DNA from: Candidatus Nomurabacteria bacterium
GTDB lineage: Bacteria > Patescibacteriota > WWE3 > UBA101185 > UBA10185
Reading direction: 5' to 3'
Length of the DNA: 64,000 bases
Assembly: GCA_020631855.1 (NCBI GenBank)
Contig: JACKGU010000002.1
Location: forward strand, 89,188 to 153,187
Below the pieces are notes generated by a model. It did not search any database and was not told the DNA's origin. It saw only the letters and a program-made list of their open reading frames with translations. A program made the translations under genes and the position numbers. Below are positions 493 to 61,078 of the stretch, one piece after another (the stretch's first letter is position 1; each line of letters begins with the position of its first letter).

Positions 493-933
493 CTAAGATT
501 TCTTTATAGCAATCTTTTTTGGTTGTTCCTCCTCCTTTTTATTGAATGATACTGTCATTACTCCGTTCTTACATACTGCTTCGGGATCGTTTTTAAGATC
601 TACATTGCTTGGTACCGAAACTCTGTACGAAAAGTTAGAGGTAGCTTTTTTGTAATACTTTTTAGATTTATCTTCTGTCTTCGACTCTCCTCTGATCCAT
701 AGTACGTTTTTGTCCAAAGTAACCTCTACTTCTTCGGGATTTATACCCGGTACCGCGGCTTCTACGTATACTTTTTTATCGTCTTCGTAAATAGATACGC
801 CGGACGCTGCTGTGAAATCTTCATCCCAAATTGAGGGAAACTTTGATGTTGAAAGATCCCAAAATGAGCTGGGAACTAAATTTAAGGTCATATTTGCCTC
901 CTTGGAAAATATATACTTATCACTTTTATACAA
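493..933 (-). CDS. Hsp20/alpha-crystallin family small heat-shock protein
   Basis: 146 aa. C-terminal alpha-crystallin domain pattern (VSVPSNVDLKNDPEAVCKNGVMTVSF). Confidence 0.8.
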   Translation of the reverse strand: MYKSDKYIFSKEANMTLNLVPSSFWDLSTSKFPSIWDEDFTAASGVSIYEDDKKVYVEAAVPGINPEEVEVTLDKNVLWIRGESKTEDKSKKYYKKATSNFSYRVSVPSNVDLKNDPEAVCKNGVMTVSFNKKEEEQPKKIAIKKS

Positions 934-2648: not shown

Positions 2649-3974
2649 TCAATCCTTTTTAGTGAAGAAGTTTTCACTGAAAGTTAAACCTTTTTCCAAG
2701 AGCTTAATATTAAAGTTTTCGTTTACTCCGTGCATGTTGCAGTCGTCATTCCCAAGAGATACAAGAAGTGTGTCTTTTCCAAGTACACTTTTAAAATCAT
2801 TTACTACAGGAATTCCTCCCCCAACTGGTTTAGATAGCGCAGGTTTTCCAAAAGCAGTCTCTAGAACAGTTCTTACTTTAGAGAAGATTTGGCTTGAAGT
2901 GTCTATTTTTATTGGATTATAGGCATTTGTAAATTCCAGCTCATATTTTATGTAAGCGGGTGTGTTTTGTTTCACAAAATCAGCAAATTTATTTTTTATT
3001 TCTTCCGTATTTTGAAACATTACGGTTCGAAAGTTTAATCTTACCTCCGCTTGTGCCGGGACTATATTTGCGTAGCCTTCTTCTGTGTAGCCTGCTTTAA
3101 AGCCTGTAATTTGAATTGTTGGTCTTAGACCTACCTGTGAAAGCAAATCCAGTTCACTTTCAGTAGTAAGCTTTTTTACGCCTATATTGTCCAAGATGCT
3201 TTCCAGATTCTCAACCGCCTTAGTATTTTGTTCTTGTTGCTGCTGGCTTATCTCGTCAACGTCTTTGTAGAACCAATCAAAAGCCACTTTGCCGCTTGTG
3301 AATACTTTATTTAAAAATGCAGACAATTCTTGAGCCGAATTTGGAACAGCCCCTCCGTATAAACCAGAGTGCAGGTTGTTTTTTGCCGTAGTGTAGGTGA
3401 TTTTACAATTAAACCCGCCTCTTAAAGAATATTCAATTACCGGGTTTGTTCCTATAAGTTCGCCATCAGATACCATTATGTAGTCCGCTGTTAGTTTGTC
3501 TTTGTTTTTCTGTAACTGCGAAGCAAGTTCTGTGTTTGAAGTTTCTTCATTGCCTTCTATCAAAAATTTTACATTGTATTTAAGCCGCTTTGTTTTTATC
3601 AACTCACATACCGTATACATATGAATAAAAAATTGCCCTTTATTATCTACCACTCCCCTTGCAATCAGCCTGTCGCCTTTTTCAAACAATTCAAACGGGT
3701 CTTTTTCCCAACCATCGCTAATATTTGCAGGCTGAACATCGTAGTGTCCGTATACCAGTACAGTTTCAAATGCGGGATCAACTTCAATTGTGCCAAAAAC
3801 CACCGGATTAGATATTTCTCCTTGCCAGAGTTCTGTAGTGAATCCCGAATCATTAAGGTATTTTTCTATCCATTTAACTGCTTTTATGATCTCGCTTTTA
3901 TAGGCGGGATCTGTTGAGATGCTTTTAAATGAAATTAATGGTTCAAGTTGTTTAGTGTAATTTTTGTAGTCCAT
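2649..3974 (-). CDS. M20 family metallopeptidase (dipeptidase/DapE-ArgE-like)
   Basis: 441 aa. VYGHYDVQP...GVVDNKGQ metal-binding motifs typical of M20 peptidases. TATAAT 7 nt upstream of the ATG. Confidence 0.85.
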   Translation of the reverse strand: MDYKNYTKQLEPLISFKSISTDPAYKSEIIKAVKWIEKYLNDSGFTTELWQGEISNPVVFGTIEVDPAFETVLVYGHYDVQPANISDGWEKDPFELFEKGDRLIARGVVDNKGQFFIHMYTVCELIKTKRLKYNVKFLIEGNEETSNTELASQLQKNKDKLTADYIMVSDGELIGTNPVIEYSLRGGFNCKITYTTAKNNLHSGLYGGAVPNSAQELSAFLNKVFTSGKVAFDWFYKDVDEISQQQQEQNTKAVENLESILDNIGVKKLTTESELDLLSQVGLRPTIQITGFKAGYTEEGYANIVPAQAEVRLNFRTVMFQNTEEIKNKFADFVKQNTPAYIKYELEFTNAYNPIKIDTSSQIFSKVRTVLETAFGKPALSKPVGGGIPVVNDFKSVLGKDTLLVSLGNDDCNMHGVNENFNIKLLEKGLTFSENFFTKKD

Positions 3975-5687: not shown

Positions 5688-6053
5688 TTAGGTTAATTTG
5701 TCAATCGCCTCTTTTATCTCAGTCAATAAAGTGTTGCTTTTTATGAAATAGCCTTCTGCTCCTGCCTCTTTTGCCTTCTGTTTTACTTCTGCGCTGGAAA
5801 CGTTTGACGTCATAAGTACCGGAACTGTTTTTGTTTCCGTATTGCTTTTTAGCTCTTTCAGTATCTCTATTCCATCTTTGTGCGGAAGCAGTACATCGAG
5901 CAAAACTAAATCAGGCCCGAATTTGATTGCTTCTGATACTACGTCGCGACCGTTGTATAGTTGCTTTGTAGTGTAGTTAATGTTTCTAAAAAAGGATCTA
6001 TAAGCAGAATTTAGAAGTTCGTCATCTTCTACAATTAATATTCTTTTACTCAT
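5688..6053 (-). CDS. Single-domain response regulator (CheY-like receiver)
   Basis: 121 aa. ILIVEDD ... LVLLDVLLP.KDG ... K receiver-domain signature. Confidence 0.8.
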   Translation of the reverse strand: MSKRILIVEDDELLNSAYRSFFRNINYTTKQLYNGRDVVSEAIKFGPDLVLLDVLLPHKDGIEILKELKSNTETKTVPVLMTSNVSSAEVKQKAKEAGAEGYFIKSNTLLTEIKEAIDKLT

Positions 6054-6219
6054 TATTTAAATAATACAAGATTTATAGACGGTTGTTAATACATGTTAAT
6101 TTAAGCACGTACGTGGTTTTTATGTTGGAAGTAATCCTCTAAGCAAATCCCCGTCTTGTTTAGAAGGTTTTGTGGCTTTTTACAGCGGAGCGTTAATTTT
6201 TTTGGATCGGTAAAGTTTG

Positions 6220-6244
6220 CGGCGCTTGATATTCAAGCGCCGCT
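6220..6244 (-). terminator. Hairpin terminator-like element 3' of the lysine-rich gene
   Basis: GCGGCGCTTGA-TATT-TCAAGCGCCGC perfect 11-bp stem. Confidence 0.4.
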
Positions 6245-6270
6245 ATAATTCAGATTCTATTAAGTGTAGC

Positions 6271-6438
6271 TTATCTTTTTTTTGTTGCTACTTTTGCTTT
6301 TGCTGTTGTTTTTTTAACAACCTTCTTTACTGCTTTTTTAACAGTCTTTTTTGCAGCTACTTTCTTTACTGCTTTTTTAACAGTCTTTTTTGCAACTGGT
6401 TTTTTTGCTACTTTCTTTACAGTCTTTTTTACTGGCAC
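6271..6438 (-). CDS. Lysine/alanine-rich histone H1-like / HU-tail-like small basic protein (55 aa, absent from the ORF track)
   Basis: Minus-strand frame: GGAGGTGA-ttatt-GTG start. Translation VPVKKTVKKVAKKPVAKKTVKKAVKKVAAKKTVKKAVKKVVKKTTAKAKVATKKR, stop TAA. It is built from 39-nt tandem repeats. The + ORF 6217..6459 is its shadow. Confidence 0.6.
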   Translation of the reverse strand: MPVKKTVKKVAKKPVAKKTVKKAVKKVAAKKTVKKAVKKVVKKTTAKAKVATKKR

Positions 6439-6787
6439 AATAATCACCTCCTGAATTAGTTAAAATAAATACGTTTTGATATTCTGATATGGTTGAAGAT
6501 AGTAAGTACTGCCCACCCTGACCACATTCTAGGTCGGCTAGGTTAATTGAATATTTACCTGTGTTTATGGAAAATAAATTTTGAGCAGTTATATTTTTCA
6601 TCTAGTTAGTTTTAAAACTATATATTAAAATTTTCGTTTGTTTCTATATAAAAGTCAATAGTTTCTTTTTATTTCATGTTTTGATAATACAATTCATGTT
6701 TACATGAAAATTTTTTTATGGTCGATTATTTAAAACCATGCTGAGTATTTTTTAGAACGAAAAAAAAATAAAACCTGGTTAAAGCCC

Positions 6788-7672
6788 TTATTTGGTGCTC
6801 TCTACCGGTGTCCAAAGTTTTAGTAAAGGTTCATTTTTTATTTTTACTTTATAAAAAATTAATCCCCAAACATGTAGTCTCGCCAAGAGTAATAAAGAAG
6901 ACCAAAAAAATTCTTTTGGGTTTGTTGCAAATAAAATTACACTTAAACCTCCTTGTCCTATTTCTCCTAAAAAAGATCTATTGTTTTTTTCTGGTTTATA
7001 GATTTCTGCTTGAGTATGTCCGGCGGTTGATCTTGTTTTTTGCTTTAGCCAGTCATAGTAATTCAGTGGGTATTTTACCTTAACTAAGGCTTCCTCCTCG
7101 TAGGCTATTCGATAGCCTGCCTCGTGCACTTTGTACGATATTACTGCATCATCGGCTAAAGAGTTCTCAGGAATTGAGTCGACTATACCCGCTCTTATGG
7201 CATATAAATATCCTGAGCATTGGATATACCGGTTTTGTTTCGACAGAAGTTTACGATTATTATTTAAGATGTTGGTGAGAGCATGCGACCAGTAACCTAA
7301 AATTGTATTTTTTGAGTTTAGGCTTATCGGATGTCCGCACACAGCTCCAATATTTTTATCAAGATATAGATTTTTAACCAGCATGGGTATGGCGTTACTT
7401 TCCAAAAAAACGTCACCATCTGTTAAAACAATTATCTCTCCCTTTGCATGCCTTAAACCAATGTTTAAAGCTGCAGGCTTGCCTTTTCTCTCGTCCTTAA
7501 AAAGTATTATATTTTTATATTGATTTTTTAATTCCTCTACAGATTTAACTGTTTCCGGATCAGGGCATATGACAAGAACCTCATCTTCATGGGAGATTTG
7601 TTTTTGTATCGAATCTATAGCTACTTTTATTGTTTTAGGTTCTCTATATGCTGTCACTATTATACTTAGCAT
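6788..7672 (-). CDS. Family 2 glycosyltransferase
   Basis: 294 aa with GT2 motifs (IIVTAYRE..., DGD in VLTDGDVFLE). Confidence 0.85.
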   Translation of the reverse strand: MLSIIVTAYREPKTIKVAIDSIQKQISHEDEVLVICPDPETVKSVEELKNQYKNIILFKDERKGKPAALNIGLRHAKGEIIVLTDGDVFLESNAIPMLVKNLYLDKNIGAVCGHPISLNSKNTILGYWSHALTNILNNNRKLLSKQNRYIQCSGYLYAIRAGIVDSIPENSLADDAVISYKVHEAGYRIAYEEEALVKVKYPLNYYDWLKQKTRSTAGHTQAEIYKPEKNNRSFLGEIGQGGLSVILFATNPKEFFWSSLLLLARLHVWGLIFYKVKIKNEPLLKLWTPVESTK

Positions 7673-7721
7673 CGTTTTTGTGTAGTTTTTCTTTCGTGTT
7701 AATAATAAAAAACTCTTTGAT

Positions 7722-8462
7722 CTAGCATTTCATTAGTGTTAAGCACTGTTCTTTTGCGTCCCCCTCTGGAAGCTGATCACAGGCGGAACACCCGCTATCT
7801 TTTAGTGAGTTTTCCAATTCCATCATTTGTTGCGATAGATCAATAAACTCTATACCGCTGGGTAAGTCAAACAGCTCGTTGTCAACATCCCAAGTGTTGC
7901 AGTCAAAAGACATCGAAGCTGAGGGGTCTGTTTGTTCTGTTGCTTCGCCAGTGAGATTATTGTTTTCATCTGCGCCTTCTGTTGCCGGCATTAGGTCTTG
8001 AAGAAAAGAATCATTCTCTGTGTCGAGCTTAGTCAGATAACCTTCGTTACGGCCTTCTTCCCACATGTAATTACCCGTCTCGTTTCTTATCATATTCATT
8101 GTTGTCTTATTGGAGTCTTCGTCGATCATTGTGAAAGTGCCTCGCATCCTCATTCCCTCATCTGCTATGTATAGGTTGCCCGAGGTGTAGGGGGGTTCGG
8201 ATTCGTTTCCGTCGCTATAAGTGCAGAAAAGGTTATCTCCGAGTTGAAAAATGTCTTCTAGAGTTCCAATCATTTTTTCTTCCTCGTTGTTTGATCCAGA
8301 TTCTGTCTCAGCTGTTTCTTCTTGAGCATTCCTGTCTATTCTGTTATCGGCAATTTCCTTATTTCGGTCTAATTTTTTTGGTGCAAAAAATTGCACGTAT
8401 GCCATCAGTGCCACTGCAGCTACAATTATAGTTACGATTGGGATTATAAGTTTGTATTTCAT
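7722..8462 (-). CDS. Hypothetical acidic secreted/membrane-anchored protein
   Basis: 246 aa. N-terminal TM/signal anchor (IIPIVTIIVAAVALMAY), acidic low-complexity region, Cys-rich C-terminus. Confidence 0.4.
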   Translation of the reverse strand: MKYKLIIPIVTIIVAAVALMAYVQFFAPKKLDRNKEIADNRIDRNAQEETAETESGSNNEEEKMIGTLEDIFQLGDNLFCTYSDGNESEPPYTSGNLYIADEGMRMRGTFTMIDEDSNKTTMNMIRNETGNYMWEEGRNEGYLTKLDTENDSFLQDLMPATEGADENNNLTGEATEQTDPSASMSFDCNTWDVDNELFDLPSGIEFIDLSQQMMELENSLKDSGCSACDQLPEGDAKEQCLTLMKC

Positions 8463-8528
8463 ATTTAGATTGTAGCAAATTTGATCAATGTTTGCTCTGT
8501 TTATGCTCGTTGTCGTAAACTATAGAAC

Positions 8529-9086
8529 ATGCACAAATCTATAAACCTAGATGGAATCGAAGTAGTTTATGATTTTAAAAGATATTCCGGTTCGAAAAAT
8601 ATTAAAATAACTGTTTTCTCAACACATAGAGTTCTTGTGACTGCTCCAAAAAGAGTTAGAGAGTCGGATGTAAATGCGTTTATTATATCGAGATCCGGGT
8701 GGATCCTGCCTTTACTGGGAAATGAATCAAATGTTAATCATAAGAAAAATTTATTAGAAAAGAAGATGGAGTATAAAAAACTTAAAAGACGTGCGGAGGA
8801 GATACTGTCTGCCCGACTGCGGCATTTTAACGCGATCTATGGATTTAGATTCAAATCAGTTAAGATCCGGAATCAATCATCAAGGTGGGGTAGTTGTTCT
8901 TCGTCGGGCTCAATAAATTTTAATTACAGGCTCATATTATTAGATCAGGAGTTGATAGATTACGTTGTTGTTCACGAATTATGCCATCTGCGCGAAATGA
9001 ATCACTCCCCTGCTTTTTGGAGATTAGTTGAAAAAAGTATTCCAAATTATAAAGTGCTAAAAAAGAAACTAGCCCGCCTGTCATAA
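8529..9086 (+). CDS. YgjP-like metal-dependent hydrolase (DUF45/M48-like, HExxH)
   Basis: 185 aa with VVVHELCHLREMNHSPAFW (HExxH...H) near the C-terminus. Confidence 0.7.
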   Translation: MHKSINLDGIEVVYDFKRYSGSKNIKITVFSTHRVLVTAPKRVRESDVNAFIISRSGWILPLLGNESNVNHKKNLLEKKMEYKKLKRRAEEILSARLRHFNAIYGFRFKSVKIRNQSSRWGSCSSSGSINFNYRLILLDQELIDYVVVHELCHLREMNHSPAFWRLVEKSIPNYKVLKKKLARLS

Positions 9087-9141
9087 GTAAATTTTTAGTC
9101 TGAGATTTTTTCTGAAGTTTGTTTCTTCTCGTCTGGCAAGT

Positions 9142-9870
9142 TTACTCAACAGCTATTGTTTCGCTTAGAGTTGCTATTACAACAAGTCTTTTTAATGTTG
9201 TTCCGGCCGGCCAGCATGTCATTAGTGTTAAGGTGTTTTTATCCTCGTAGCCTTCTAACGTCTTTAGATATGCTAGTTCTTTTGGGCCAACTATTTTAAC
9301 CTCAGAAACCGAATACTTATTTATAAAGTTTTTTTGTGATTCTGAGAACTTTAGATATATTTCATCAGTCGGTGCAAGCTTGTAGAGCAAATAGAATATT
9401 GCATTGTATTTATTTACATTAATAAGCCCGTCTGTTGAATGCGCAAAAACGAAGGTGTTAGTACCGAGGGACAGCCCCGAGGTTGGATAATCACTGCCTT
9501 TGGCGTGAGCTACTCCGTATTTTAAGGCCGTTCCATATTCCTCAGAATTAAACGGATCAATATTTTTCAATATTTTTGCTTTTGCGCCAATTTTGGGTAT
9601 GTAGATTGAATCTTCGTTGTATGGCTGGAAATTACTTAAAAAATCGTTAATGTTTTTATTTGTTGAGTCTTTAGAGATAGTTTGTATGTTTGCACCGTAA
9701 CCTTTTTTGTTAACAAGGTAGTTAAGCTCCTCGCCAAGAACCGGCAGGAACAATAACGCCAGTCCTATAAGTGAGAGTGAAAAGAGTGCGGCTCCTGTGT
9801 GCAGGAGCCGCCTCGACCCATTACCATTCGATTTATTTTTGACTATTTTTAAGTCGTTTCTTTGCCCCAA
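9142..9870 (-). CDS. Sortase family transpeptidase
   Basis: 242 aa. N-terminal TM and catalytic TLxTC motif (LTLMTCWPAG). Lies immediately downstream of the LPATG protein gene. Confidence 0.8.
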   Translation of the reverse strand: MGQRNDLKIVKNKSNGNGSRRLLHTGAALFSLSLIGLALLFLPVLGEELNYLVNKKGYGANIQTISKDSTNKNINDFLSNFQPYNEDSIYIPKIGAKAKILKNIDPFNSEEYGTALKYGVAHAKGSDYPTSGLSLGTNTFVFAHSTDGLINVNKYNAIFYLLYKLAPTDEIYLKFSESQKNFINKYSVSEVKIVGPKELAYLKTLEGYEDKNTLTLMTCWPAGTTLKRLVVIATLSETIAVE

Positions 9871-12800
9871 GGTATAAGCCTAAAACTGCCAAAATTATTA
9901 CTGGAATATAGATTACCGGAGAAGTAAGAGCATTTACCAGTTTAGCTAAGAGTGTTGAGGAATTTCTTTCTCGATCTGTTCTTATGTTGCCGTTTCCCTC
10001 GTCCTCGTTAGTTCCTAGAACAGCACCGTCTCCTTGATCTTGGTCAGCTCCCGTCTGATTCTGATCTTGTTCACCTGCTGTTCCTGTGAGGCTCTGTAAG
10101 CCCCCTGCAGCCCCGATAAATTGTCCCTCGGTAGTAGTAACCTCGCTATCGCTGTCACTATTAACTGTTTTTTCAATTATGGTCTCTTCGGTTATTTCCT
10201 CCACCCTGACATTAGAAGGATTTCCGGCTTCGTCAAAAGCCCTTACTGCGTAGTAAGGTTTTTTACCGCATTTATCGGAAGGAAGGTTATCGGTAAACTC
10301 ATATGTAGCGTCGTTACCTATTGAGATAGTTTTAATCTTAGAGCTGTCATTAACTGTAAACTCTTTGTTAAAAGATCTATACACCTCTACATAGTTTGTG
10401 TCTCCTTCGCTGCTAGTTTTAAATTTTACCTCATATTCACAGGAATTTTTTTTATCCTTTTTGATGTATCTTGGTTTTCCGGGGCCTTTGCTGTCGTATT
10501 TCACACTGACGCTTTCCGAAGTTATTGAAGTTTCGTCAGAAAACACGGCTTTGACGTTAAAGTAGTATGTTCCGTCTTCCGTAAGTACTGAGTTATTAAC
10601 TAAGCAAGAGTCGGTGTTGCCGCCGTCGGCGAGAGACACCTCTTGATATTTTATGTAGTCTGCCGATGTCGGTTTTTTAACATAGCACTCTACGTTTGTG
10701 TTGGGCCTGCTTTCTGTATCTAACAGAACAAATGTAATCGAAAACTCACTGTTTGCAGGGCTTATTGGATCCTCTACTCTTAGTGCGGCGGCTGCGTCTA
10801 CTTTGTTGAAGTTCATTGCGCCTGCGGCCAGCAGGACCAACAAGGATATGAGCGTGACTCTTGCAGTTCTTGTTAATGACATTTTTTTATTCTTTCTAAG
10901 CAGGCCAAATACTATTAATATTATTCCTGAGGCTAAGGACACTAGTAAGGTTGCTAGTATGGCGGTTATTGTTCCTGTTGCAGGTAGCCCCAAAACTTCC
11001 CCACGTTCTGTAGATGCTCCTAAAACCTCTTCAATTATTTCTTTTTTGTTAACCTTTACTTCAGTTTTCGCTTCGTCCGGCTGAGGCTTTTCTTTTACTC
11101 CCACTTCGGTGCCCGAAAAGTTCTCGTCTACGTAGCCCTCGGTTTCCGCTTGTGCCAAGATCTCGTTTTCGTTACTGTCGGAACCTTGAGTCCATGTGAG
11201 GTCTTTATACAGCCCGGGGTCCACTGAAATTGCTGTTTTAGCCTTTAGCGTAAGAGTTACAACTTCTCCGTCCTCCATGTCTCCTAGTTCCCATGTTCCC
11301 GGAGAGGCATAAGTTGGTTCGGTAGTAATATTTCCGGCTTTAAGATCTCCCCTTAAACTCGAGTCTGCAGTATATGATCCTGCGATGTATGTAAATCCCT
11401 CGGGAAGAAGATCTACGACCCTAACATTGTATAGGTAGCTTAGCTTCGCGGTAACTTTTATGGTATACGTGACGACATTCTCAACTTCATTGTCAAGGTA
11501 ATCTCCTGTCCAGTTATTTGTTTTCATTAGATACAACTCAGGAGTTATCGGGGCATTAAAGAAGTCAAAATTTGTCTTTTCAGCTGCTTTGTCGCTGTCA
11601 ATCGCGACCTCTCCGTCGCTAAGGCGAGCTTGGTAGAAACCTTTTTCAGGAGCAATTATGTCGTAGCCCGGAGTTTCATCCTCCCAAATTTTATAGTGCC
11701 CGTCTCTTAAATCATCAAAGAAATATTCGCCCGACTTGTTTGTAGTAGTATCTATGGTTGTATCTTTCAGGCACTCGTAATTGGGACTAATAAGCCCTTT
11801 TTCTGATAGATTCGTTGTTGTACTTAGTACGCTAACTGTCTGTGAAGGCAATTCGCACAAATGTATTGGCCAGTTGGGTAGTGGGTAGTCTGTTTCATCG
11901 TATATTCCGTTTCTGTTTAGATCAGCATACTTGTGTCCTGTTAAAGAGCCGGTTCGCATATTTCCGAAGATACATTCCGCTTCCTCCCCAGGTTTCAGAT
12001 CAATTGTGCATATATCCGGCGAGGTAGTTTGTTTCCATCCTTTTTGCTGTGTTTCTTTAATAGTATATTTTCCCGGATCGAGTTTAATTAGATAGTTGCC
12101 GTTCTCATTTGTAGTTGTTGTATATATACTTTCTTTAGATCCGTCATCTGTGTAAAGCTCAATTCCCCACCCCTCAAGTTTAGGTTCGTTTTCCTCTTTT
12201 GTCCCGTTCCCGTTAAGATCATTAAATTTATAGCCTGTTATTGCGGCAGTGTCGGTTTTCAGGTCCTCGCACACACCCTCTACGGCTAAAAGTGCGTTTA
12301 CATCAAAACCGTCGGCAGAATTGATGTGTGGTGCAAAGTTTGTAGTGTCTATAAGTTTCACATATTTAAACCAGTTCATTTTTGGAAGCTCGTTGCTAAT
12401 ATCAAGATCGTTCGCACCACCTGAAACGTGGTTGGTAACTTCTCCTGCAAAAAACCAGGACGTTCCATTTTGTGAAACGTAAACATCTGCGGTTTCCTCC
12501 GGGTATCCGAACCTTGACTCATATGTAGTTTCGTAAATAGTTAAGTCGGTCCCGCTTACATTTAGTACCGGATCGTCAAATGAAATTACCAACTCACCCT
12601 CTTTTCCAAGGCTTACAAAATCAGAATCAAGCTCAAATAAAGAATTGGCGGGATCTGACCTTTCAGGCAGAACATTGCCGCCTCCTTTAAGAGTGCCTTG
12701 GTCGAAGCTGACGACTGATTGTGCCCACCTTTTGCCTTCTACGCATTGATTTTCTTCGGGCATGTCTACTATTGAATTTGGACATGAGGCCAAGTCATTT

Positions 12801-14311
12801 ACTTGCAAACCCCTCGTATCAGCTACCTCTTTTGCCTCTTCTCCGTTCAAAACATTTTCGTAGGTAAAAGAATAAGCTCTGGATCTAACCGGAGAATCTT
12901 GTGTTGATGATACGTAAAATTTCCCGTCTTTAATTGCTAGGCCGGTTACATTTTTTACGCCAATATTTCCAATGTATTCAGCTACCTTAGTGGTTGAGCG
13001 TAGGACATAGAAATTGCCATCGTAGTCGACAGCAAAAAGCTTATTTTCTGAGTCAAACGCCATATCTCCGCCGAAAGTTTTGAATCCTGTATAAGTTCCT
13101 TTGTATTCCGAAGAGCCGTTGGTTATATCAATAGTATAAAGTTTAAAGTCTTTATTCATTGTATATAGATTTGCATCTGCATCGAAGGCTAGTTTGGGAT
13201 AGCCTTTGTATTTTTCAAGGCCGCTTGTTTCAAGCTCGGTCTGTGTCCCTGTTGCAATATCATATTTAATTAAGACCGGGTTTATTTTTTGACTATTATA
13301 GATATAGTAAACATCTCCAGTTTTTGGATGAAGTGCGCCCCCTGCCGTTGGTTCAATTTGGTCGACTACCTTTTTATATGTACTTTCTCCTAAGTCTAAA
13401 ACAGTCATTTCGCTCTCTAGTCCTACACCAAAAATGTCTTGGCAAATTTTAAATTCGGGCTGTACTGATTCGCCCGGGCAGAGGCCGTTTTCATCTACTG
13501 GCATGTCTTTTTCGTGGCCGGCTCGGGTTGTTCCGTTCTCGCTAAGGTGCCCGGCATTGCCGTTTCCATATAAAGCGTTGCAGGATATTTCTATTTTTAC
13601 ATATTTGTTAGTTTCTGAACTTGTAGCGTGGCAAAGAGTGTATTTCCCACCATAATCATCTTTGCACTCTGTTTCTGTTGGGAATAAGGGGTCTGCTTCT
13701 TCATTACTATTTTTCGAATTTATCGCAAGCGCAGCTTCTGCAGTATTGGCACCGCTGCCGCTCTCATCCTCCTTTGTAGGAGCTTGAATGCTCTCGCCCT
13801 CAGTAAGAGTTGCCTCGTTTTGTTTCGAGAATTCTGTGTCTTTTTCTCTTTCTTCGTTTATTCCTGTCTCGACTTTTTTACCAGCTGTGTTGTTTGAGCC
13901 GTTGTCGTAAGATATCGCCTCATCGCCACTATTTTGTGAGGTTTCGTCGGTTGTTTCGGTCCTGTCTTTATCTTCTTGTTCTAAAATCTTATCCCCGTCT
14001 GTAGCTGAGTCGTTCGTTTCATTCTCTGCTGAATTGTCGGTCGTGGGTTCTTCTGAATCTTTCCTACTACCCTCGTCCTTATCCGAATCTTGTTGCTCGG
14101 GAGAGTCCGCTTTTTCTTTACCTTCTTTGTTTTCTTCATTCGACTTTGCTTCTTTTTTTTCATCACCGTCTTCAGCCATAATGTTCGGAGTGTTGTTGTT
14201 CGTATTGTCGGTTGCAGCATAGACAAGAGGGCTCAAAATATTTAATAAAAGAGATATAAGAGTCAGGGTAGTTAATAGTTTTTTATAGAAACGTATATTT
14301 TTTGTTTTCAT
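9833..14311 (-). CDS. Giant LPXTG-type surface adhesin (signal peptide, acidic linker, beta-propeller-like region, two Cna-B/SdrD-B-type domains, LPATG sorting signal) fused in frame to a second secreted FN3-like membrane protein
   Basis: 1492 aa. Residues ~1115-1143 are LPATG + hydrophobic TM + RKNKK. They are followed in frame by MSLTRTAR + h-region + AAA (a new signal peptide) and a 349-aa module ending in its own TM + KKRLKNSQK. The junction lies on an A7 tract (plus-strand T7 at 10882-10888). Confidence 0.7.
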   Translation of the reverse strand: MKTKNIRFYKKLLTTLTLISLLLNILSPLVYAATDNTNNNTPNIMAEDGDEKKEAKSNEENKEGKEKADSPEQQDSDKDEGSRKDSEEPTTDNSAENETNDSATDGDKILEQEDKDRTETTDETSQNSGDEAISYDNGSNNTAGKKVETGINEEREKDTEFSKQNEATLTEGESIQAPTKEDESGSGANTAEAALAINSKNSNEEADPLFPTETECKDDYGGKYTLCHATSSETNKYVKIEISCNALYGNGNAGHLSENGTTRAGHEKDMPVDENGLCPGESVQPEFKICQDIFGVGLESEMTVLDLGESTYKKVVDQIEPTAGGALHPKTGDVYYIYNSQKINPVLIKYDIATGTQTELETSGLEKYKGYPKLAFDADANLYTMNKDFKLYTIDITNGSSEYKGTYTGFKTFGGDMAFDSENKLFAVDYDGNFYVLRSTTKVAEYIGNIGVKNVTGLAIKDGKFYVSSTQDSPVRSRAYSFTYENVLNGEEAKEVADTRGLQVNDLASCPNSIVDMPEENQCVEGKRWAQSVVSFDQGTLKGGGNVLPERSDPANSLFELDSDFVSLGKEGELVISFDDPVLNVSGTDLTIYETTYESRFGYPEETADVYVSQNGTSWFFAGEVTNHVSGGANDLDISNELPKMNWFKYVKLIDTTNFAPHINSADGFDVNALLAVEGVCEDLKTDTAAITGYKFNDLNGNGTKEENEPKLEGWGIELYTDDGSKESIYTTTTNENGNYLIKLDPGKYTIKETQQKGWKQTTSPDICTIDLKPGEEAECIFGNMRTGSLTGHKYADLNRNGIYDETDYPLPNWPIHLCELPSQTVSVLSTTTNLSEKGLISPNYECLKDTTIDTTTNKSGEYFFDDLRDGHYKIWEDETPGYDIIAPEKGFYQARLSDGEVAIDSDKAAEKTNFDFFNAPITPELYLMKTNNWTGDYLDNEVENVVTYTIKVTAKLSYLYNVRVVDLLPEGFTYIAGSYTADSSLRGDLKAGNITTEPTYASPGTWELGDMEDGEVVTLTLKAKTAISVDPGLYKDLTWTQGSDSNENEILAQAETEGYVDENFSGTEVGVKEKPQPDEAKTEVKVNKKEIIEEVLGASTERGEVLGLPATGTITAILATLLVSLASGIILIVFGLLRKNKKMSLTRTARVTLISLLVLLAAGAMNFNKVDAAAALRVEDPISPANSEFSITFVLLDTESRPNTNVECYVKKPTSADYIKYQEVSLADGGNTDSCLVNNSVLTEDGTYYFNVKAVFSDETSITSESVSVKYDSKGPGKPRYIKKDKKNSCEYEVKFKTSSEGDTNYVEVYRSFNKEFTVNDSSKIKTISIGNDATYEFTDNLPSDKCGKKPYYAVRAFDEAGNPSNVRVEEITEETIIEKTVNSDSDSEVTTTEGQFIGAAGGLQSLTGTAGEQDQNQTGADQDQGDGAVLGTNEDEGNGNIRTDRERNSSTLLAKLVNALTSPVIYIPVIILAVLGLYLGAKKRLKNSQK

Positions 14312-21101: not shown

Positions 21102-21677
21102 TTATGCCTGTTGTTTTTTTGATTCTATATAGTTTTTTCTGAATTCCAGAAATTGTTTTTTCATGGAATCATACCCAAATATTCCCAGGTCATTACAATC
21201 TAGCCCTTTACCAAAGATTTTGAAATGTCTATAAGCTTTGTAAACATTTATAGACCCGTTTGTAGCGTCAACTGAGAACCATTTACCATTCAAATAGCAC
21301 TCACCAAAGGAATGTCCTTTAATTTTGTTCTCCGAGTCACTATTTTTTGTATCCAACCACTCCTCTGCAATTACTTCCACATACTTTGTAGGTATCTTTT
21401 TACTTCGCATAATTGTTACAAATAGTAAAGTGTAATCTGTGCAACCAGCATGATAGTTACTTTTATAAATATCATCTGCAGTTCTATTCATCAAAACTTC
21501 TTTTAAATCAACTCCCATGTTTGTTGCGTGATTCTCCCCATTGTTAAAATATCCTCTTAGCCATACTAAGCTATTAAATATATAGTCTAAACCTTCTCCT
21601 TCTATTGAACGGGCAAGTTCCGCTATTTCCACGGATATGGCGGTCTGCTTACCTTCCTGTAAATATTTTTCTTTCAT
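21102..21677 (-). CDS. Transglutaminase-like cysteine protease domain protein
   Basis: 191 aa. Cys (HAGCTDYT), His (GHSFGECY), Asp (VDATNG) catalytic triad spacing. TATAAT 6 nt upstream of the ATG. Confidence 0.55.
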   Translation of the reverse strand: MKEKYLQEGKQTAISVEIAELARSIEGEGLDYIFNSLVWLRGYFNNGENHATNMGVDLKEVLMNRTADDIYKSNYHAGCTDYTLLFVTIMRSKKIPTKYVEVIAEEWLDTKNSDSENKIKGHSFGECYLNGKWFSVDATNGSINVYKAYRHFKIFGKGLDCNDLGIFGYDSMKKQFLEFRKNYIESKKQQA

Positions 21678-27313: not shown

Positions 27314-27820
27314 ATGAGTACCAAAGGCGGTAAATATAAAGGACATAAATTTCATGGTGATCCTCAAAGATTTGAGGTTGTTGCTGATTTTGTATTTGAT
27401 ACCTTTGGAAGAAATATTGAATACATAGCAGATGTTGCAGGAGGACGTGGGATGTTATCTAGGATTTTGAACAAGAAGTATAACTACAAATCAACTGTTT
27501 TTGATCCTAGGGGGTATACATTAGTGGGTGTAGATAGTAGAACTGATGAATTTAAGCCAGAAGACGCTTCATATTATGATTTGGTAATAGGATTACATCC
27601 TGATGAAGCTACTCGCCCTGTTGCAGAATCTGCCCTAGCAACGAATACTCTTGTAATACCCTGTTGTAACTTTTGGGATCAAACTAAGAAACTCGGTAGA
27701 GATGCTCTTATTGAGGAGATCTCAAAGTATTATGATGAGAATGGAATAAGGTATAAGAAGGTTGAGCTTGACTTTGAAGGACCAAAAAATATCGGCTTAG
27801 TTAGTTTTCATCAGAAGTAA
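27314..27820 (+). CDS. Hypothetical protein (possible SAM-MTase-like motif IADVAGGRGMLS)
   Basis: 168-aa ORF with TATAAT 6 nt upstream of the ATG. Confidence 0.4.
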   Translation: MSTKGGKYKGHKFHGDPQRFEVVADFVFDTFGRNIEYIADVAGGRGMLSRILNKKYNYKSTVFDPRGYTLVGVDSRTDEFKPEDASYYDLVIGLHPDEATRPVAESALATNTLVIPCCNFWDQTKKLGRDALIEEISKYYDENGIRYKKVELDFEGPKNIGLVSFHQK

Positions 27821-48349: not shown

Positions 48350-48864
48350 CTTAGTCCTAATGTTGTTACAAAATTTCTACTTTCTTTTCCGCTATTTTTC
48401 TCTGCTATGCTTGTTACTGTAAACATAATTTTTATTGTTTCTTGGCCTCCCGGAACGCCGTATTTAGTAAATGAAACGTTGGAAATGGTAGTTCTGTTGC
48501 TGTTTAGGTTATATGCTCCGTCAGAAGTTGCCAAAAGAAGATTATCCATGCTTGTGCTGTAGGTGTATTTATTTATTCCTATATCGAGTTCTAGCGTTCC
48601 GCTGGAAGAGCCGACTACTTCGGGCATCGCTATGGCTTCGGCTCTGTATACGTCATATGAGATCCTGTTTAGTATGTATGTTCCATCCTGTTCGACTGAT
48701 GATACCGAATCGGATTCCAGCTTTATATTCGCTATTCCAACAAGCATGTCTGTTACAACGACAAGCAATATACTCATTAAGCCCATGTATAAAAGTAATT
48801 CCACCAAAGTCATTCCTTTCTGGTTGTGTCCTTTTTTGATGTGTAATCTGTTTTTAATAATCAT
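48346..48864 (-). CDS. Minor pilin (prepilin-type N-terminal domain)
   Basis: KGMTLVELLLYMGLMSILLVVV. Confidence 0.7.
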   Translation of the reverse strand: MIIKNRLHIKKGHNQKGMTLVELLLYMGLMSILLVVVTDMLVGIANIKLESDSVSSVEQDGTYILNRISYDVYRAEAIAMPEVVGSSSGTLELDIGINKYTYSTSMDNLLLATSDGAYNLNSNRTTISNVSFTKYGVPGGQETIKIMFTVTSIAEKNSGKESRNFVTTLGLR

Positions 48865-50714
48865 GGTGAGTAATTTATCCTTGCCTCGTATAAAATTGGC
48901 GTGTTGCTGCCGTCGCTACTTAAGTAGGTTTTAAATCTAAAGTATCTGCCTTCCACCGAGTTAAGCGGAATAGCTCCCGAAGCGGAGTAAAGTGTATTGT
49001 TTGTACCATCGGGCCCCACATAGTTCCAGGTAGAATTATCTGTGTTGGTAGCGATTTGAACAGAGACGCCAGTATTTGTAGGCAAACTAGAAATAAAATC
49101 AAAATAGTTAAAACCAACTGACCCCCCTGCATCAAATGTTTGGGAAGTGTATTGTCCGTTGTTTGCGTAGGCGCTACCCCCGAGATCCGCACATAATACA
49201 ATAAACTCTTTTGAATTGTCGTCGGTTGCGCCGAAAGCGCAGCCCTCTTTAACAAAAAGCGAATTAATACCTCCGGCTCCGGTATCGTAAGAACTCAGTT
49301 CTACAGGATTTGATTTATCCGATATGTCTACAACAAGAAATTCTTTAGTAACCGAATCAGTTCCAAGAAAAGCCAGATCTCCAACAACAAACACTGTATC
49401 CGAATAGGCTCCTATGTTCATAGATCCTACAAGAGAAGTGTTGTTGGGAGAAGACACATCTACTATATAAAATTCTGCCCCCGAGCCATTATTGGATGTA
49501 GTTATATATGCGTAATTCCCATCGAAATATACTCCAGACCCATCTGAATTTGAAGGTGTGTCGAAGATGCCCGCAGATGTTGGAGAGTTAACGTTTGAAA
49601 TGTCAATAATTCTAAGCTCGGCAGAATCTTCTATTGTTGACAAATATACATAGTTTCCTTGTGGATAAACATCCAAAACGTCGTTGTTTACTTCGTAGCT
49701 TCCTACAAGAGAAAGAGATGGTGCGTTTGAAGAATCAAATATTAAAAGTTCCGGTTCAGCGGGAGTTGCGTCTCGACCTGCGACTATGTAATTTCCGAAC
49801 TTCCCGATAGAATAAAGGTCGTTATTTCTGTTTAAATTTATGCTCGACGCTTGCACCGGATTCGCTTTGTTTGATATGTCAACCACAACAATCTCGCTGG
49901 AGTTTATGCCGGTCGCCAGGTACGCATAGTTATTGGAAACAACAATTGCGTATATTGTTCCCCCAGGAGAATAACTTCCTACTAGAGTAGTATTGTATGG
50001 ATCTGAAATATCAAATATATACAACGTGCTAGTGCCCATGTACGCAAAATCTCCTTCAACAAAAATTGCCAGGGAGTTTGTGTTGCCCGGAGAGTTGTAC
50101 GAATATGCTAAATTAGGTGTGCTCCAGTCTGCGCTTGGAAGCTGCTCCAGCTCAATCTCTCCGCCCGCATTATTTTTAGATACTGTATTGTCGAAAGTTC
50201 CTTGAATGAATTGCTCTTGTGTAGTTTGCTCCCACAGCGTATTTCCAAGGTATCTAGTTAGGTATGTGCTAGTAAAAACTTCGGATGCTATTGGTGTTTG
50301 CCAACTCACGGATATTTCGGCATATTTGGTTGAAGGGTCTAGTGTGCCTCCTGCAGATACTATAGTACCCGTATTGTCTCTGTAAACGTCTGAAATAACT
50401 ATGCTTCGTGTGAAAATGCCCAGATTTTCGGGGCCGCTTTCTAGGTTCCAAGAACTGCCGTCAGTTGAAGGATGAAAAATTCCCGGAGACGCTATCTTAT
50501 ACCAGTTTTCTTCGCGGGCACTGCGCAAAGCTTCGTAGGTCTCGCGTACAAGTGCTGTAGCAGCAACTCTATTTTCCTTTTGCGGCCTTCCTTCCCTACT
50601 TGCTACGAAGCCGGTAAGTAGTGCAGGAAGTAAGATTGCTAGAATCCCAAAAGACACCAACACCTCTATTAAGGATTGGCCAAACTCTATAGAAGTGTTA
50701 GTTTTTAATGACAT
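48861..50714 (-). CDS. Pilin-like N-terminus fused to an LVIVD-repeat beta-propeller (candidate pilus tip adhesin)
   Basis: N-terminal GQSLIEVLVSFGILAILL prepilin-like helix. At least 6 repeats of the form YIFDISDP..LVGSY...NYAYLA / IVVVDISNKANP (LVIVD family). Confidence 0.65.
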   Translation of the reverse strand: MSLKTNTSIEFGQSLIEVLVSFGILAILLPALLTGFVASREGRPQKENRVAATALVRETYEALRSAREENWYKIASPGIFHPSTDGSSWNLESGPENLGIFTRSIVISDVYRDNTGTIVSAGGTLDPSTKYAEISVSWQTPIASEVFTSTYLTRYLGNTLWEQTTQEQFIQGTFDNTVSKNNAGGEIELEQLPSADWSTPNLAYSYNSPGNTNSLAIFVEGDFAYMGTSTLYIFDISDPYNTTLVGSYSPGGTIYAIVVSNNYAYLATGINSSEIVVVDISNKANPVQASSINLNRNNDLYSIGKFGNYIVAGRDATPAEPELLIFDSSNAPSLSLVGSYEVNNDVLDVYPQGNYVYLSTIEDSAELRIIDISNVNSPTSAGIFDTPSNSDGSGVYFDGNYAYITTSNNGSGAEFYIVDVSSPNNTSLVGSMNIGAYSDTVFVVGDLAFLGTDSVTKEFLVVDISDKSNPVELSSYDTGAGGINSLFVKEGCAFGATDDNSKEFIVLCADLGGSAYANNGQYTSQTFDAGGSVGFNYFDFISSLPTNTGVSVQIATNTDNSTWNYVGPDGTNNTLYSASGAIPLNSVEGRYFRFKTYLSSDGSNTPILYEARINYSP

Positions 50715-59764: not shown

Positions 59765-61078
59765 TTACTTCTTTTCTTTAGTCGTGTTTTTTGAAGCTTT
59801 TTTTGATTTTTTTACAACCGTTTCTTCAATTTTTGTGGCCATCTCTTTTGTCCCATTCTGTACTTCCGGGGCGTTACCAGTATTCTGATTCGAGAGGATA
59901 AGTAGGTGCTTTTTGTTTATTCTATGAAGAACCAGAATTAGCATTGTTGCTAGAGCAAGCAGCAGAAGTTTTAATACGCCCATTTGAGCATTAGTGCTCT
60001 CATTTAATTCCGAAAGCTGTCTTTGAGCTTCTGCTATTTTTGTATTTATCGCGCTGTCATTATTAACAACTTCAATCTTTGCGATTTCGGTTTCCTCAGA
60101 CATGCTGTCGTCCCAATTAAAGTATGCTACGGTAATCCTGTGTTCCCCCGCCGGAAGTGTGTCAGGGGCCAATTCATATTCCCAGTTTCCGTTTTCGTCA
60201 CTGGTTAGCTCGTTTCGTATTGGATCGCTGTATATTGTCAACATAAAACGAGTGTTTGGAACAATTGTTTTACCAAAGAGTTTTATTGTTTTTGCTTTAT
60301 CTTGAGGGTTTACAATTAAGCTTTCATCTAAGGTTACTGTTTGTGCAACACTAGGGCTTGCTTGAGTGTTTAAGTTTTGACTCCCCTCGTTGTTGGTAGA
60401 AGCCTCATTTTTATCGGAATCTTTTTCATCTTTGTTATCTTTGTTGTCATTATCCTTGTCTTTATCTTTATCTTTTGATGTTGGGCTAGAGGTATTAGTA
60501 GTTGTTTGCGTGTCTTCCGGGGCAGTACTTGATGAAGAGTCCTCGTCGCAATCCGGCATTACCGGAAAGCAGCTTATTAATCCTACTTCTTCCTGAAGAA
60601 TAAGGTTTGCATCTTCCGTATTCACCGAGTCTGATGCGTTGACATCTGAAATGTACAGCTGTAAAAGATTTAGAGAAATCATATTCTGCGCATATTGCTC
60701 AATTTTTAATGCGTCAACAGAATTTACATCTCCGTTACCGTCGGTGTCACCAAATAAAACGTTGTTGTAGGCAAAATCATCTTCTTCGTATGGCAATGTG
60801 GTTATTATTCCAATGTCGCGCTGCATTATCATGTCGGCATCATTTGTTGAAAGCTCACCATTACCGTCAACATCTCCGGCCCATTTTTGAGCCAGTGAGA
60901 TATTTTTTATTCCGTCCAAATACTGCCTAATTAAGAGAGCGTCTAGAACATTAGTTGTTCCGTCTTTGTTTACGTCTCCGTTTCCCGGTTCAACCTCTCT
61001 CGCATAAGTTGAACTAGTTAGTATCGTGGAAGACAGTACGAGCGAGGCGGCTATGAGAAGATATTTTTTAGTATTCAT
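59765..61078 (-). CDS. Surface protein with dockerin-type repeats, Asp/Lys-rich linker, Ig-like domain and C-terminal TM anchor
   Basis: Signal peptide, then four GDVNKDGTTNVLDAL / GDVDGNGELSTNDAD / GDTDGNGDVNSVDAL-type EF-hand-like dockerin repeats, then KDKDKDKDNDNKDNKDEKD, then a C-terminal hydrophobic anchor. Confidence 0.65.
   Translation of the reverse strand: MNTKKYLLIAASLVLSSTILTSSTYAREVEPGNGDVNKDGTTNVLDALLIRQYLDGIKNISLAQKWAGDVDGNGELSTNDADMIMQRDIGIITTLPYEEDDFAYNNVLFGDTDGNGDVNSVDALKIEQYAQNMISLNLLQLYISDVNASDSVNTEDANLILQEEVGLISCFPVMPDCDEDSSSSTAPEDTQTTTNTSSPTSKDKDKDKDNDNKDNKDEKDSDKNEASTNNEGSQNLNTQASPSVAQTVTLDESLIVNPQDKAKTIKLFGKTIVPNTRFMLTIYSDPIRNELTSDENGNWEYELAPDTLPAGEHRITVAYFNWDDSMSEETEIAKIEVVNNDSAINTKIAEAQRQLSELNESTNAQMGVLKLLLLALATMLILVLHRINKKHLLILSNQNTGNAPEVQNGTKEMATKIEETVVKKSKKASKNTTKEKK

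Follow-up and report, generated by a model that had tools for sequence, protein, structure and literature searches.

A lysine-rich mini-gene with histone H1 tail-like composition in a probable Patescibacteria-type genome

Lysine-rich proteins resembling the tails of histone H1 occur in a few bacteria and are thought to be related to the origin of linker-histone tails. A preliminary description of the 64-kb stretch of DNA analyzed here (the window) pointed to a very small candidate of this kind, which raises the question of whether a lysine-rich frame of 55 codons is a gene at all and, if it is, what its product might do. The window is ~37% GC, and its genes include a sortase, a type IV pilin-like gene, and PMT-type glycosyltransferases. 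Together with a best listed response-regulator match of 41% to a Patescibacteria genome, these properties point to an uncultivated, probably Patescibacteria-type bacterium as the source. The immediate neighbors of the frame encode a glycosyltransferase and a response regulator. Coordinates of the features discussed below are collected in Table 1.

Table 1. Features of the mini-gene locus (positions in the window) and gene orders that recur among similar mini-genes in metagenomes (locus handles)
Feature	Position or locus	Strand	Details
Lys-rich mini-protein CDS	6271..6438	-	55 aa; starts GTG, stops TAA; same product length annotated in the source assembly
Extended Shine-Dalgarno AGGAGGTGAT	6443..6452	-	GGAGG core 6447-6451, 8 nt 5′ of GTG
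In-frame tandem repeat	6309..6430	-	Tandem Repeats Finder: 39-nt (13-aa) period, 3.2 copies, 84% matches
51-nt unit encoding VKKVAKKPVAKKTVKKA	6370..6420	-	Once here; exact tandem copy in other strains, giving the 72-aa allele
GC-rich hairpin GCGGCGCTTGA-ATA-TCAAGCGCCGC	6219..6243	-	Perfect 11-bp stem, 3-nt loop; begins 27 nt past the stop codon
Weak candidate promoters	6617..6658	-	TTGACT-17-GAAAAT and TAGAAA-18-TATAGT, 9/12 matches each
Response-regulator gene promoter	6061..6089	-	TTAACA-17-TATTAT, 7 nt before ATG at 6053
Spurious 80-aa Cys/Phe-rich ORF	6217..6459	+	Codon-aligned antisense frame of the Lys-rich CDS
74-aa ORF, probably spurious	6377..6601	-	Shares 62 nt with the 5′ end of the CDS in another frame; called in the ENA assembly only, not in the NCBI MAGs
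Synteny: GlyRS, mini-gene, ComEC-type MBL	L108, L132 (both 61 aa)		GlyRS 52%, MBL protein 37% identical
Synteny: mini-gene directly upstream of secA	L135, L153, L121 (58, 46, 46 aa)		SecA 55-57% identical
Synteny: mini-gene convergent with prmC	L093, L137 (60, 30 aa)		PrmC 46% identical

Translation of the minus-strand frame gives VPVKKTVKKVAKKPVAKKTVKKAVKKVAAKKTVKKAVKKVVKKTTAKAKVATKKR, a peptide identical to the one originally quoted for this position. Read on that strand, the DNA runs TTCAGGAGGTGATTATT-GTG-CCA-GTA-AAA at the start of the gene, and the last codons are AGA-TAA, ending at 6271. The Shine-Dalgarno (SD) sequence reported earlier, GGAGGTGA-TTATT-GTG, is present upstream of the CDS, and the actual match is longer: AGGAGGTGAT can pair over 10 nt with the canonical 16S 3′ end, the longest such stretch in the window, the anti-SD being assumed canonical in a window that holds no 16S gene. 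The GTG that can serve as the start is at 6436-6438; the ORF list gives 6271..6447 (58 aa) only because another GTG in the same frame, at 6445-6447, falls within the SD, where it is no start. The SD is the longest in the window and not its sole strong one, contrary to what had been claimed, since AAGGAGG precedes the ATG of an HSP20 CDS (493..891, minus strand) by 5 nt and GGGAGG precedes that of the CDS at 48861..50714 by the same distance. The accompanying remark that neighboring genes are mostly SD-less or leaderless was borne out: a -10-like hexamer (TATAAT, TATTAT, and similar) is found 4 to 10 nt, mostly 6 to 8 nt, before the ATG in 22 of 64 crude window genes, compared with 7 of 255 internal in-frame ATGs taken as a control. 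Because these hexamers sit just before the ATGs, most first genes in the window are probably leaderless.

The frame had also been called unannotated, which does not hold. Its 55-aa product is annotated in the source assembly (ENA ERZ27248703, 285-kb contig), ERZ795048 carries the gene too, and in the NCBI metagenome-assembled genomes (MAGs) products of 72 or 75 aa are called at the locus.

Both strands are open across the gene. The plus-strand ORF and the Lys-rich CDS are aligned codon by codon (both 1 mod 3). Codons AAR, GYN, and ACN read YTT, NRC, and NGT on the opposite strand, and since none of these can be a stop, the plus-strand frame is open automatically. Its product would be far richer in Cys (15%) and Phe (22%) than the long ORFs of the window (0.9% and 4.7%). 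We therefore agree with the preliminary description that the plus-strand ORF is spurious, given its antisense register, its implausible Cys and Phe content, and an SD that belongs to the Lys frame. Within the Lys frame, all 29 codons for Val, Ala, Thr, and Pro end in A or T and 17 of the 24 Lys codons are AAA, in agreement with the preferences of the window, these counts not being independent observations because the repeats copy one another. A further minus-strand ORF of 74 aa overlaps the start of the CDS (Table 1), and all strains are identical over its length.

The same locus was recovered by exact-protein look-up of two neighboring genes in several sources: the NCBI MAGs GCA_020631795.1 (630-kb contig), GCA_020631805.1, and GCA_020427845.1, a JGI metagenome, and several Logan assemblies. 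These copies are 99.9 to 100% identical to the window across 3 to 4 kb, and they differ in the length of the Lys-rich gene. The 39-nt tandem repeat reported earlier was found by Tandem Repeats Finder and is itself made of 12-nt units encoding K-K-x-x tetrads (a 12-nt subperiod). Four assemblies carry an allele of 72 aa (annotated at 72 or 75 aa) that arises by an exact in-frame duplication of 51 nt, the ~650 nt around the duplication being otherwise identical between the 55- and 72-aa alleles. The 55-aa allele is found on three contigs, among them one with a MEGAHIT-style name (k141) and one with a SPAdes-style name (NODE), the assembler being inferred from the contig names. Logan contigs break within the Lys-rich repeat, and we take these contig ends to be repeat-induced assembly breaks. 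The length polymorphism between near-clonal strains is probably real rather than an assembly artifact, and it matches the variation in repeat number among strains that had been predicted, with the reading frame kept.

Searches with the neighboring glycosyltransferase and response regulator found no sister species with an orthologous context among the matches listed. The one glycosyltransferase match at 88% lies on a contig that stops short of the locus, and its sequence is that of the window itself apart from a 1-nt gap; the remaining glycosyltransferase matches were all at most 52% identical. Response-regulator relatives in GTDB genomes were at most 41% identical among the matches listed, the best of these being to a Patescibacteria genome, and none shared the context.

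The perfect 11-bp hairpin described after the gene is present (Table 1). With a folding energy of -21.4 kcal/mol (z = -4.29), it is more stable than all 200 shuffled sequences; no U-tract follows it, and a scan for consensus terminators of the locus returned 0 sites. The hairpin is a probable transcript end or stabilizer. On the 5′ side, the region between the candidate promoters and the gene is unstructured (z = +0.49), and neither an Rfam search nor folding gave a leader RNA or riboswitch there. Since the next gene has a promoter of its own beyond the hairpin, the mini-gene forms its own transcription unit. A role as leader peptide or attenuator of the downstream response regulator was considered and ruled out, that gene's own promoter following the hairpin.

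Considering that the SD is correctly spaced, that codon usage fits, that independent pipelines call the gene, and that the sole length change among strains is in frame, we conclude that the Lys-rich minus-strand frame is a real small protein-coding gene. No second ORF like it is present within the 64-kb window, and none of its kind was found in 810 kb comprising 80 unrelated bacterial control loci.

Metagenome contigs were scanned for DNA encoding KKTVKK[AV][AV]KK, and the at least 120 stretches that were obtained are ascertained on this single peptide motif. At least 22 of them are stand-alone ORFs no longer than 80 aa, and about half of these lie on contigs of ~40% GC or lower (median 41%), and many of the stand-alone Lys-rich mini-genes among the matches listed are 30 to 62 aa long. 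The motif was also found in stand-alone Lys/Ala-rich proteins of ~80 to 420 aa (mostly 100 to 200), chiefly on high-GC contigs, and this set is the classical proteobacterial H1-like type. In other cases it is fused as a tail or N-terminal region to ribosomal protein L17, RpoD, topoisomerase I (TopA), DksA-like, or SWIB proteins, with further fusions to Obg, adenylate kinase, and HtpG, and one match is a true eukaryotic H1. The small stand-alone genes begin M-[PA]-x-K-K and finish KK[KR], several of them (L110, L132, and L108) have SDs of the GGAGGTGA type, and many are followed by a strong hairpin (z from -3 to -8.4). Three gene orders recur among them (Table 1), and because the peptide motif was the sole criterion by which the loci were picked, their shared gene orders are independent evidence for maintained genes.

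The stand-alone Lys-rich mini-genes are thus a conserved class. In ORF length, in its M-[PA]-x-K-K start, and in its SD and hairpin the window gene conforms to this class, and its context is shared with none of the three synteny groups; we therefore claim it as a member of the class and not as an orthologue. The idea that the Lys-rich frame is kept in relatives was upheld to the extent that position is kept in divergent genomes of the same class, but not for an orthologous context.

The 55-aa protein has a mass of 6.0 kDa, a pI of 11.8, and a net charge of +24, which rises to +32 in the 72-aa allele. It is composed of 24 Lys (44%), 12 Val (22%), 9 Ala (16%), 6 Thr (11%), and 2 Pro (4%) residues, with only Arg and Met besides, and contains no acidic, aromatic, Cys, or His residues, no SPKK motif, and no folded domain. 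The sequence consists almost wholly of K-K-x-x tetrads in which x is Val, Ala, Thr, or Pro, with Lys pairs every four and sometimes five residues and autocorrelation peaks at lags of 4, 8, and 13. AlphaFold2, run with no alignment, predicted three helices broken at Pro14 and Ala29-Ala30 (mean pLDDT 82.7), which for a sequence of this kind indicates helical propensity rather than a fold. The hydrophobic moment peaks at 85 to 90 degrees per residue (z ~6) and is nonsignificant at 100 degrees (z = 0.7), and on an alpha-helix the stripe of Lys residues would wind about the axis and not make one face. This spiraling stripe argues against a classical membrane-active amphipathic peptide and is compatible with the wrapping of a polyanion. 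An amphipathic, antimicrobial-like helix was rejected on the hydrophobic-moment profile.

Profile and motif searches placed the protein in none of the known families. It scored 9 bits (E = 1.9) against the Hc2/HctB profile PF07382, for which the cut-off is 40 and for which the 72-aa allele was not listed, and 8.6 bits against the Hc2-type NF038052, for which the cut-off is 135. Neither allele matched Hc1/HctA (PF07432) at E ≤ 10. The window protein did not match the Burkholderia/Bordetella-type NF038053 (cut-off 80 bits), the best score for which was 46 bits, obtained only with a 134-aa protein of a high-GC metagenome. It likewise failed to match linker histone H1/H5 (PF00538), having neither Ser nor TPKK, and the HU/IHF fold of HupB and HupS type (PF00216), the whole protein being repeat. 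By the family definition of AlgP and PhaF (PMC9239181) it is not a member, having no KPAA, two Pro residues, and no nonrepeat domain. Sequence searches of Pfam, NCBIfam, and the PDB gave nothing near threshold.

A protein homology search with the 55-aa protein found 1683 word-sharing candidates, none with E ≤ 0.01; the single weak match was P0001 (66 aa; E = 0.014), and the results contained no copy of the query. The composition correction in this search removes the signal for such a protein. In metagenomes, 600 pattern matches to the protein were all discarded at tblastn confirmation (E ≤ 1e-3), which may reflect low-complexity masking. Exact sequences of the window protein and of eight similar mini-proteins are absent from a collection of 15 billion proteins, as are those of the 72- and 75-aa products. 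The protein does have the sequence features of a descriptive class, bacterial H1-tail-like lysine-rich low-complexity protein, namely short tandem repeats and a Lys content of at least ~40% alongside small residues, with Asp and Glu lacking. The label histone H1-like thus stands for composition and architecture and fails, on profiles and motifs, for membership of Hc1, Hc2, AlgP, HU, or the linker histones.

The likeness to H1 is to its tail. The C-terminal domain of eukaryotic H1 shares with the window protein ~40 to 45% Lys, small residues, the lack of acidic residues, and an expected disorder until DNA is bound, and the H1 of kinetoplastids is short, without a domain, and consists of the tail only. 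Compared with linker histone H1, the window protein has no winged-helix domain and no S/TPKK and is rich in Val. Lys-repeat tails are also known on bacterial nucleic-acid enzymes (actinobacterial TopA, HupB/HupS, Ku, and DdbA), where they anchor a catalytic or folded domain to DNA, whereas the window protein has nothing attached.

The Hc2 proteins of Chlamydia (hctB) and the Hc2-like proteins of Bordetella and Burkholderia are similarly Lys-rich and of low complexity, with nested tandem repeats and no folded domain. Hc2 binds DNA, and its repeat number differs between strains (PMC2848022); Hc2 and the window protein thus both vary in length between strains by in-frame gain or loss of repeats. 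At 55 to 72 aa, however, the window protein is three to four times shorter than Hc2 (165 to 237 aa), it is built of K-K-x-x tetrads rich in Val and Thr rather than of Ala/Pro-rich pentamers, and the developmental context of Hc2 is not known for it. The C-terminal KPAA domains of Pseudomonas AlgP and PhaF are likewise polycationic tetrapeptide repeats with a composition like that of the H1 tail. The window protein differs from them in having two Lys per tetrad rather than one, no KPAA, and two Pro residues, and it is the repeat alone, whereas AlgP and PhaF have a structured N-terminal domain that gives location and function. KPAA peptides and the AlgP tail bind DNA; AlgP, which is H1-like with a net charge of +55, sits on polyphosphate granules, and its repeat domain is needed for granule spacing (PMC9239181). 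The Lys-rich disordered repeat region of PhaF binds mRNA and activates translation (PMC12818456). Judged by its sequence, the window protein is set apart from all the systems compared here by consisting of repeat only, by being three to six times shorter, and by its richness in Val and Thr with two Lys per tetrad. A search of a paper library found no paper joining H1-like proteins and Patescibacteria. The product of the window gene is of a kind already known from bacteria, is unusually small for that kind, and is missed by standard searches.

What would such a protein do? By analogy with the C-terminal domain of H1, we favor with moderate confidence the reading that it is an abundant polycation that binds nucleic acid nonspecifically, chiefly chromosomal DNA. 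This reading draws on the composition, the repeat architecture, the strong SD, the separate transcription unit, and the frequent fusion of the same module to DNA- and RNA-handling proteins; the functional assignment rests on composition, the protein having no detectable homology to characterized ones. That it is highly expressed, binds DNA, and acts in the nucleoid or its compaction is what we infer for it. In the mechanism that we propose, the 10-nt SD would drive translation of the 55-residue protein (72 residues in other strains) from a monocistronic mini-gene. The free chain would be disordered through charge repulsion and could become helical once a polyanion neutralizes its charge. Contacts between Lys and phosphate would give sequence-independent binding to nucleic acid, and the protein would then act as an abundant counterion and condensing protein, like the H1 C-terminal domain, Hc2, and the tails of AlgP and PhaF.

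Several observations count against this reading. The repeat is rich in Val and Thr (22% Val, 4% Pro) rather than in Ala and Pro and has neither KPAA nor SPKK. Related Lys-rich regions are reported to bind RNA (PhaF) or to associate with polyphosphate granules (AlgP), which counts against DNA as the only candidate ligand. The neighbors of the mini-genes in other lineages (secA, prmC, and glyS) are translation and secretion genes, and these fit a ribosome-related role equally.

The main rival to DNA binding, and a serious one, is binding to RNA or the ribosome, in which case the protein might chaperone RNA, modulate translation, or act as a hibernation-type factor on rRNA or mRNA; we consider this rather unlikely, and the other alternatives less likely still. 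Elsewhere the mini-gene stands directly before secA, a position held by hpf in Firmicutes, beside prmC, or after glyS. Adjacency is weak evidence, since small genomes are dense in translation genes, and the neighbors in the window, the glycosyltransferase and response regulator, are unrelated to translation. A Lys-rich tail of the same kind is carried by ribosomal protein L17, and the homolog of ribosomal protein L19 beside the mini-gene L110 has a Lys/Glu-rich C terminus; the window protein, however, has no similarity to known ribosomal or hibernation proteins. The activation of translation by the mRNA-binding repeat region of PhaF (PMC12818456) is a precedent for such a role.

That the protein is instead a scaffold that binds polyphosphate appears improbable. 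Any peptide with a charge of +24 binds polyphosphate electrostatically, and AlgP does sit on polyphosphate granules, which its repeat domain spaces (PMC9239181), but the window protein has neither the N-terminal domain nor the KPAA repeats of AlgP, and the crude list of window ORFs gave no polyphosphate kinase or granule gene near the locus.

We find it very improbable that the product is an exported cationic peptide, membrane-active or host-interacting, that serves an epibiotic bacterium as an antimicrobial-like effector. Patescibacteria live on host cells, and the protein is short, cationic, and predicted to be helical. Against this, it has no signal peptide, no hydrophobic segment, and no Leu, Ile, Phe, or Trp, its charge of +24 over 55 residues far exceeds that of typical antimicrobial peptides, its hydrophobic moment is nonsignificant at the angle of an alpha-helix, and no transporter or immunity gene adjoins it.

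Least credible of all is that there is no functional protein here, but an A-rich tandem DNA repeat open by chance or a plus-strand product, for although repeat DNA keeps frames open, the exact-locus copies are near-clonal and so yield no substitution pattern, and profile searches came back empty, the 10-nt SD is ideally spaced, the frame survives a 51-nt indel, the architecture recurs and holds its position where neighbors are ~50% identical, the control loci contain no such ORF, and the obligatorily open plus-strand frame has an implausible composition.

On its own, this gene is a modest finding, a real small gene of recognizable kind whose function is inferred, and it would become more interesting if the class proves general and abundant. 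We suggest, as a doubtful but tentative generalization, that mini-proteins of 30 to 70 residues rich in Lys may be widespread, conserved, and highly expressed in ultra-small, small-genome Patescibacteria-type bacteria, where they could be a principal polycation of the chromosome, the ribosome, or both. If this is true, the class would have been overlooked since ORF length cut-offs exclude such genes and composition-bias filters remove their products, and trypsin, which would cut them to very short peptides, would also hide them. Fast in-frame change of repeat number would then tune the charge carried per molecule. The same blind spot may mean that the inventory of chromatin- and ribosome-associated proteins in small-genome bacteria is incomplete. 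The ligands of bacterial H1-tail-like proteins are still debated, with DNA, RNA, and polyphosphate all proposed, and a domain-free form of 55 to 72 residues that keeps its position in divergent uncultivated lineages and varies in repeat number among near-clonal strains would be a minimal natural system for polycation function.

The exact sequences of both Lys-rich alleles (55 and 72 aa) and of six other mini-proteins were absent from a 15-billion protein collection, and a phmmer-based search with the Lys-rich protein did not recover the query itself in any copy. Lys-rich mini-proteins appear to be systematically invisible to both the exact look-up collection and the phmmer-based search. Among the motif-scan matches listed, the KKTVKK[AV][AV]KK module also forms the tail or N-terminal region of other proteins, namely ribosomal protein L17, RpoD, topoisomerase I, Obg, adenylate kinase, HtpG, SWIB-domain and DksA-like proteins, and it is contained in one eukaryotic H1 (metagenome loci, including that of H1: L088, L156/L173, L201, L106, L112/L172, L168, L094/L151/L198/L164, L104/L122, and L179). 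Some HNH-like phage-type proteins carry it as well (L091, L099, and L178). Across divergent low-GC genomes, stand-alone Lys-rich mini-genes keep their place: flanked by glyS and a ComEC-type MBL gene (L108 and L132), immediately upstream of secA (L135, L153, and L121), where a DUF192-like gene sometimes flanks the opposite side, and convergent with prmC (L093 and L137); a further example is L098.

The A8 run just 5′ of the Lys-rich stop codon (6277-6284) is A7 in one assembly, L209 (SRR17907852), changing the protein C terminus from KKR-stop to KKDKLHLIESEL-stop. Either an error of sequencing or assembly or a genuine slip in the homopolymer could account for this difference. The lone "close homologue" (88%) of the neighboring glycosyltransferase, P0002 at L218, is equivalent to 6761..9494 of the window. 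Its DNA is that of the window itself, at 99.9% identity with a 1-nt gap; P0002 is either a frameshift variant or an error and does not represent a sister species. No sequenced close relative of the organism was found in the collections searched.

A short ORF overlapping the Lys-rich gene (listed below) was called in the ENA assembly and is absent from the gene calls of the NCBI MAGs. Neither an SD nor a −10 hexamer at leaderless spacing was found at its start, and its region is identical in all strains compared. Lying 3 kb from the mini-gene, a sortase gene and a surface-protein gene encoding SdrD_B and SpaA-type domains constitute a locus for an anchored adhesin or a pilus in the Gram-positive style.

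Features of the window and their start signals
Feature	Position	Strand	Remark
74-aa ORF	6377..6601	-	other frame; overlaps first 62 nt of Lys-rich CDS
Sortase gene and 1492-aa surface-protein gene	9142..14311	-	sortase gene overlaps end of surface-protein gene
HSP20 (alpha-crystallin) gene	493..891	-	strong SD AAGGAGG at 897-903, 5 nt before ATG
Gene	2649..3974	-	hexamer before ATG
Gene	59765..61078	-	hexamer before ATG
Gene	21102..21677	-	hexamer before ATG
Gene	27314..27820	+	hexamer before ATG
Gene	5688..6053	-	hexamer before ATG

Across the whole window, a TATAAT-like hexamer ends 4-10 nt (mostly 6-8 nt) 5′ of the ATG in 22 of 64 crude genes, whereas only 7 of 255 internal in-frame ATGs have one at that spacing. 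This excess suggests that, in this organism, first genes are as a rule expressed from leaderless mRNAs. Only a few genes of the window have a canonical SD, and only three gene starts there have a clear GGAGG-type SD. That of HSP20 is one of these three, so strong-SD genes may form a small set for high expression or stress.
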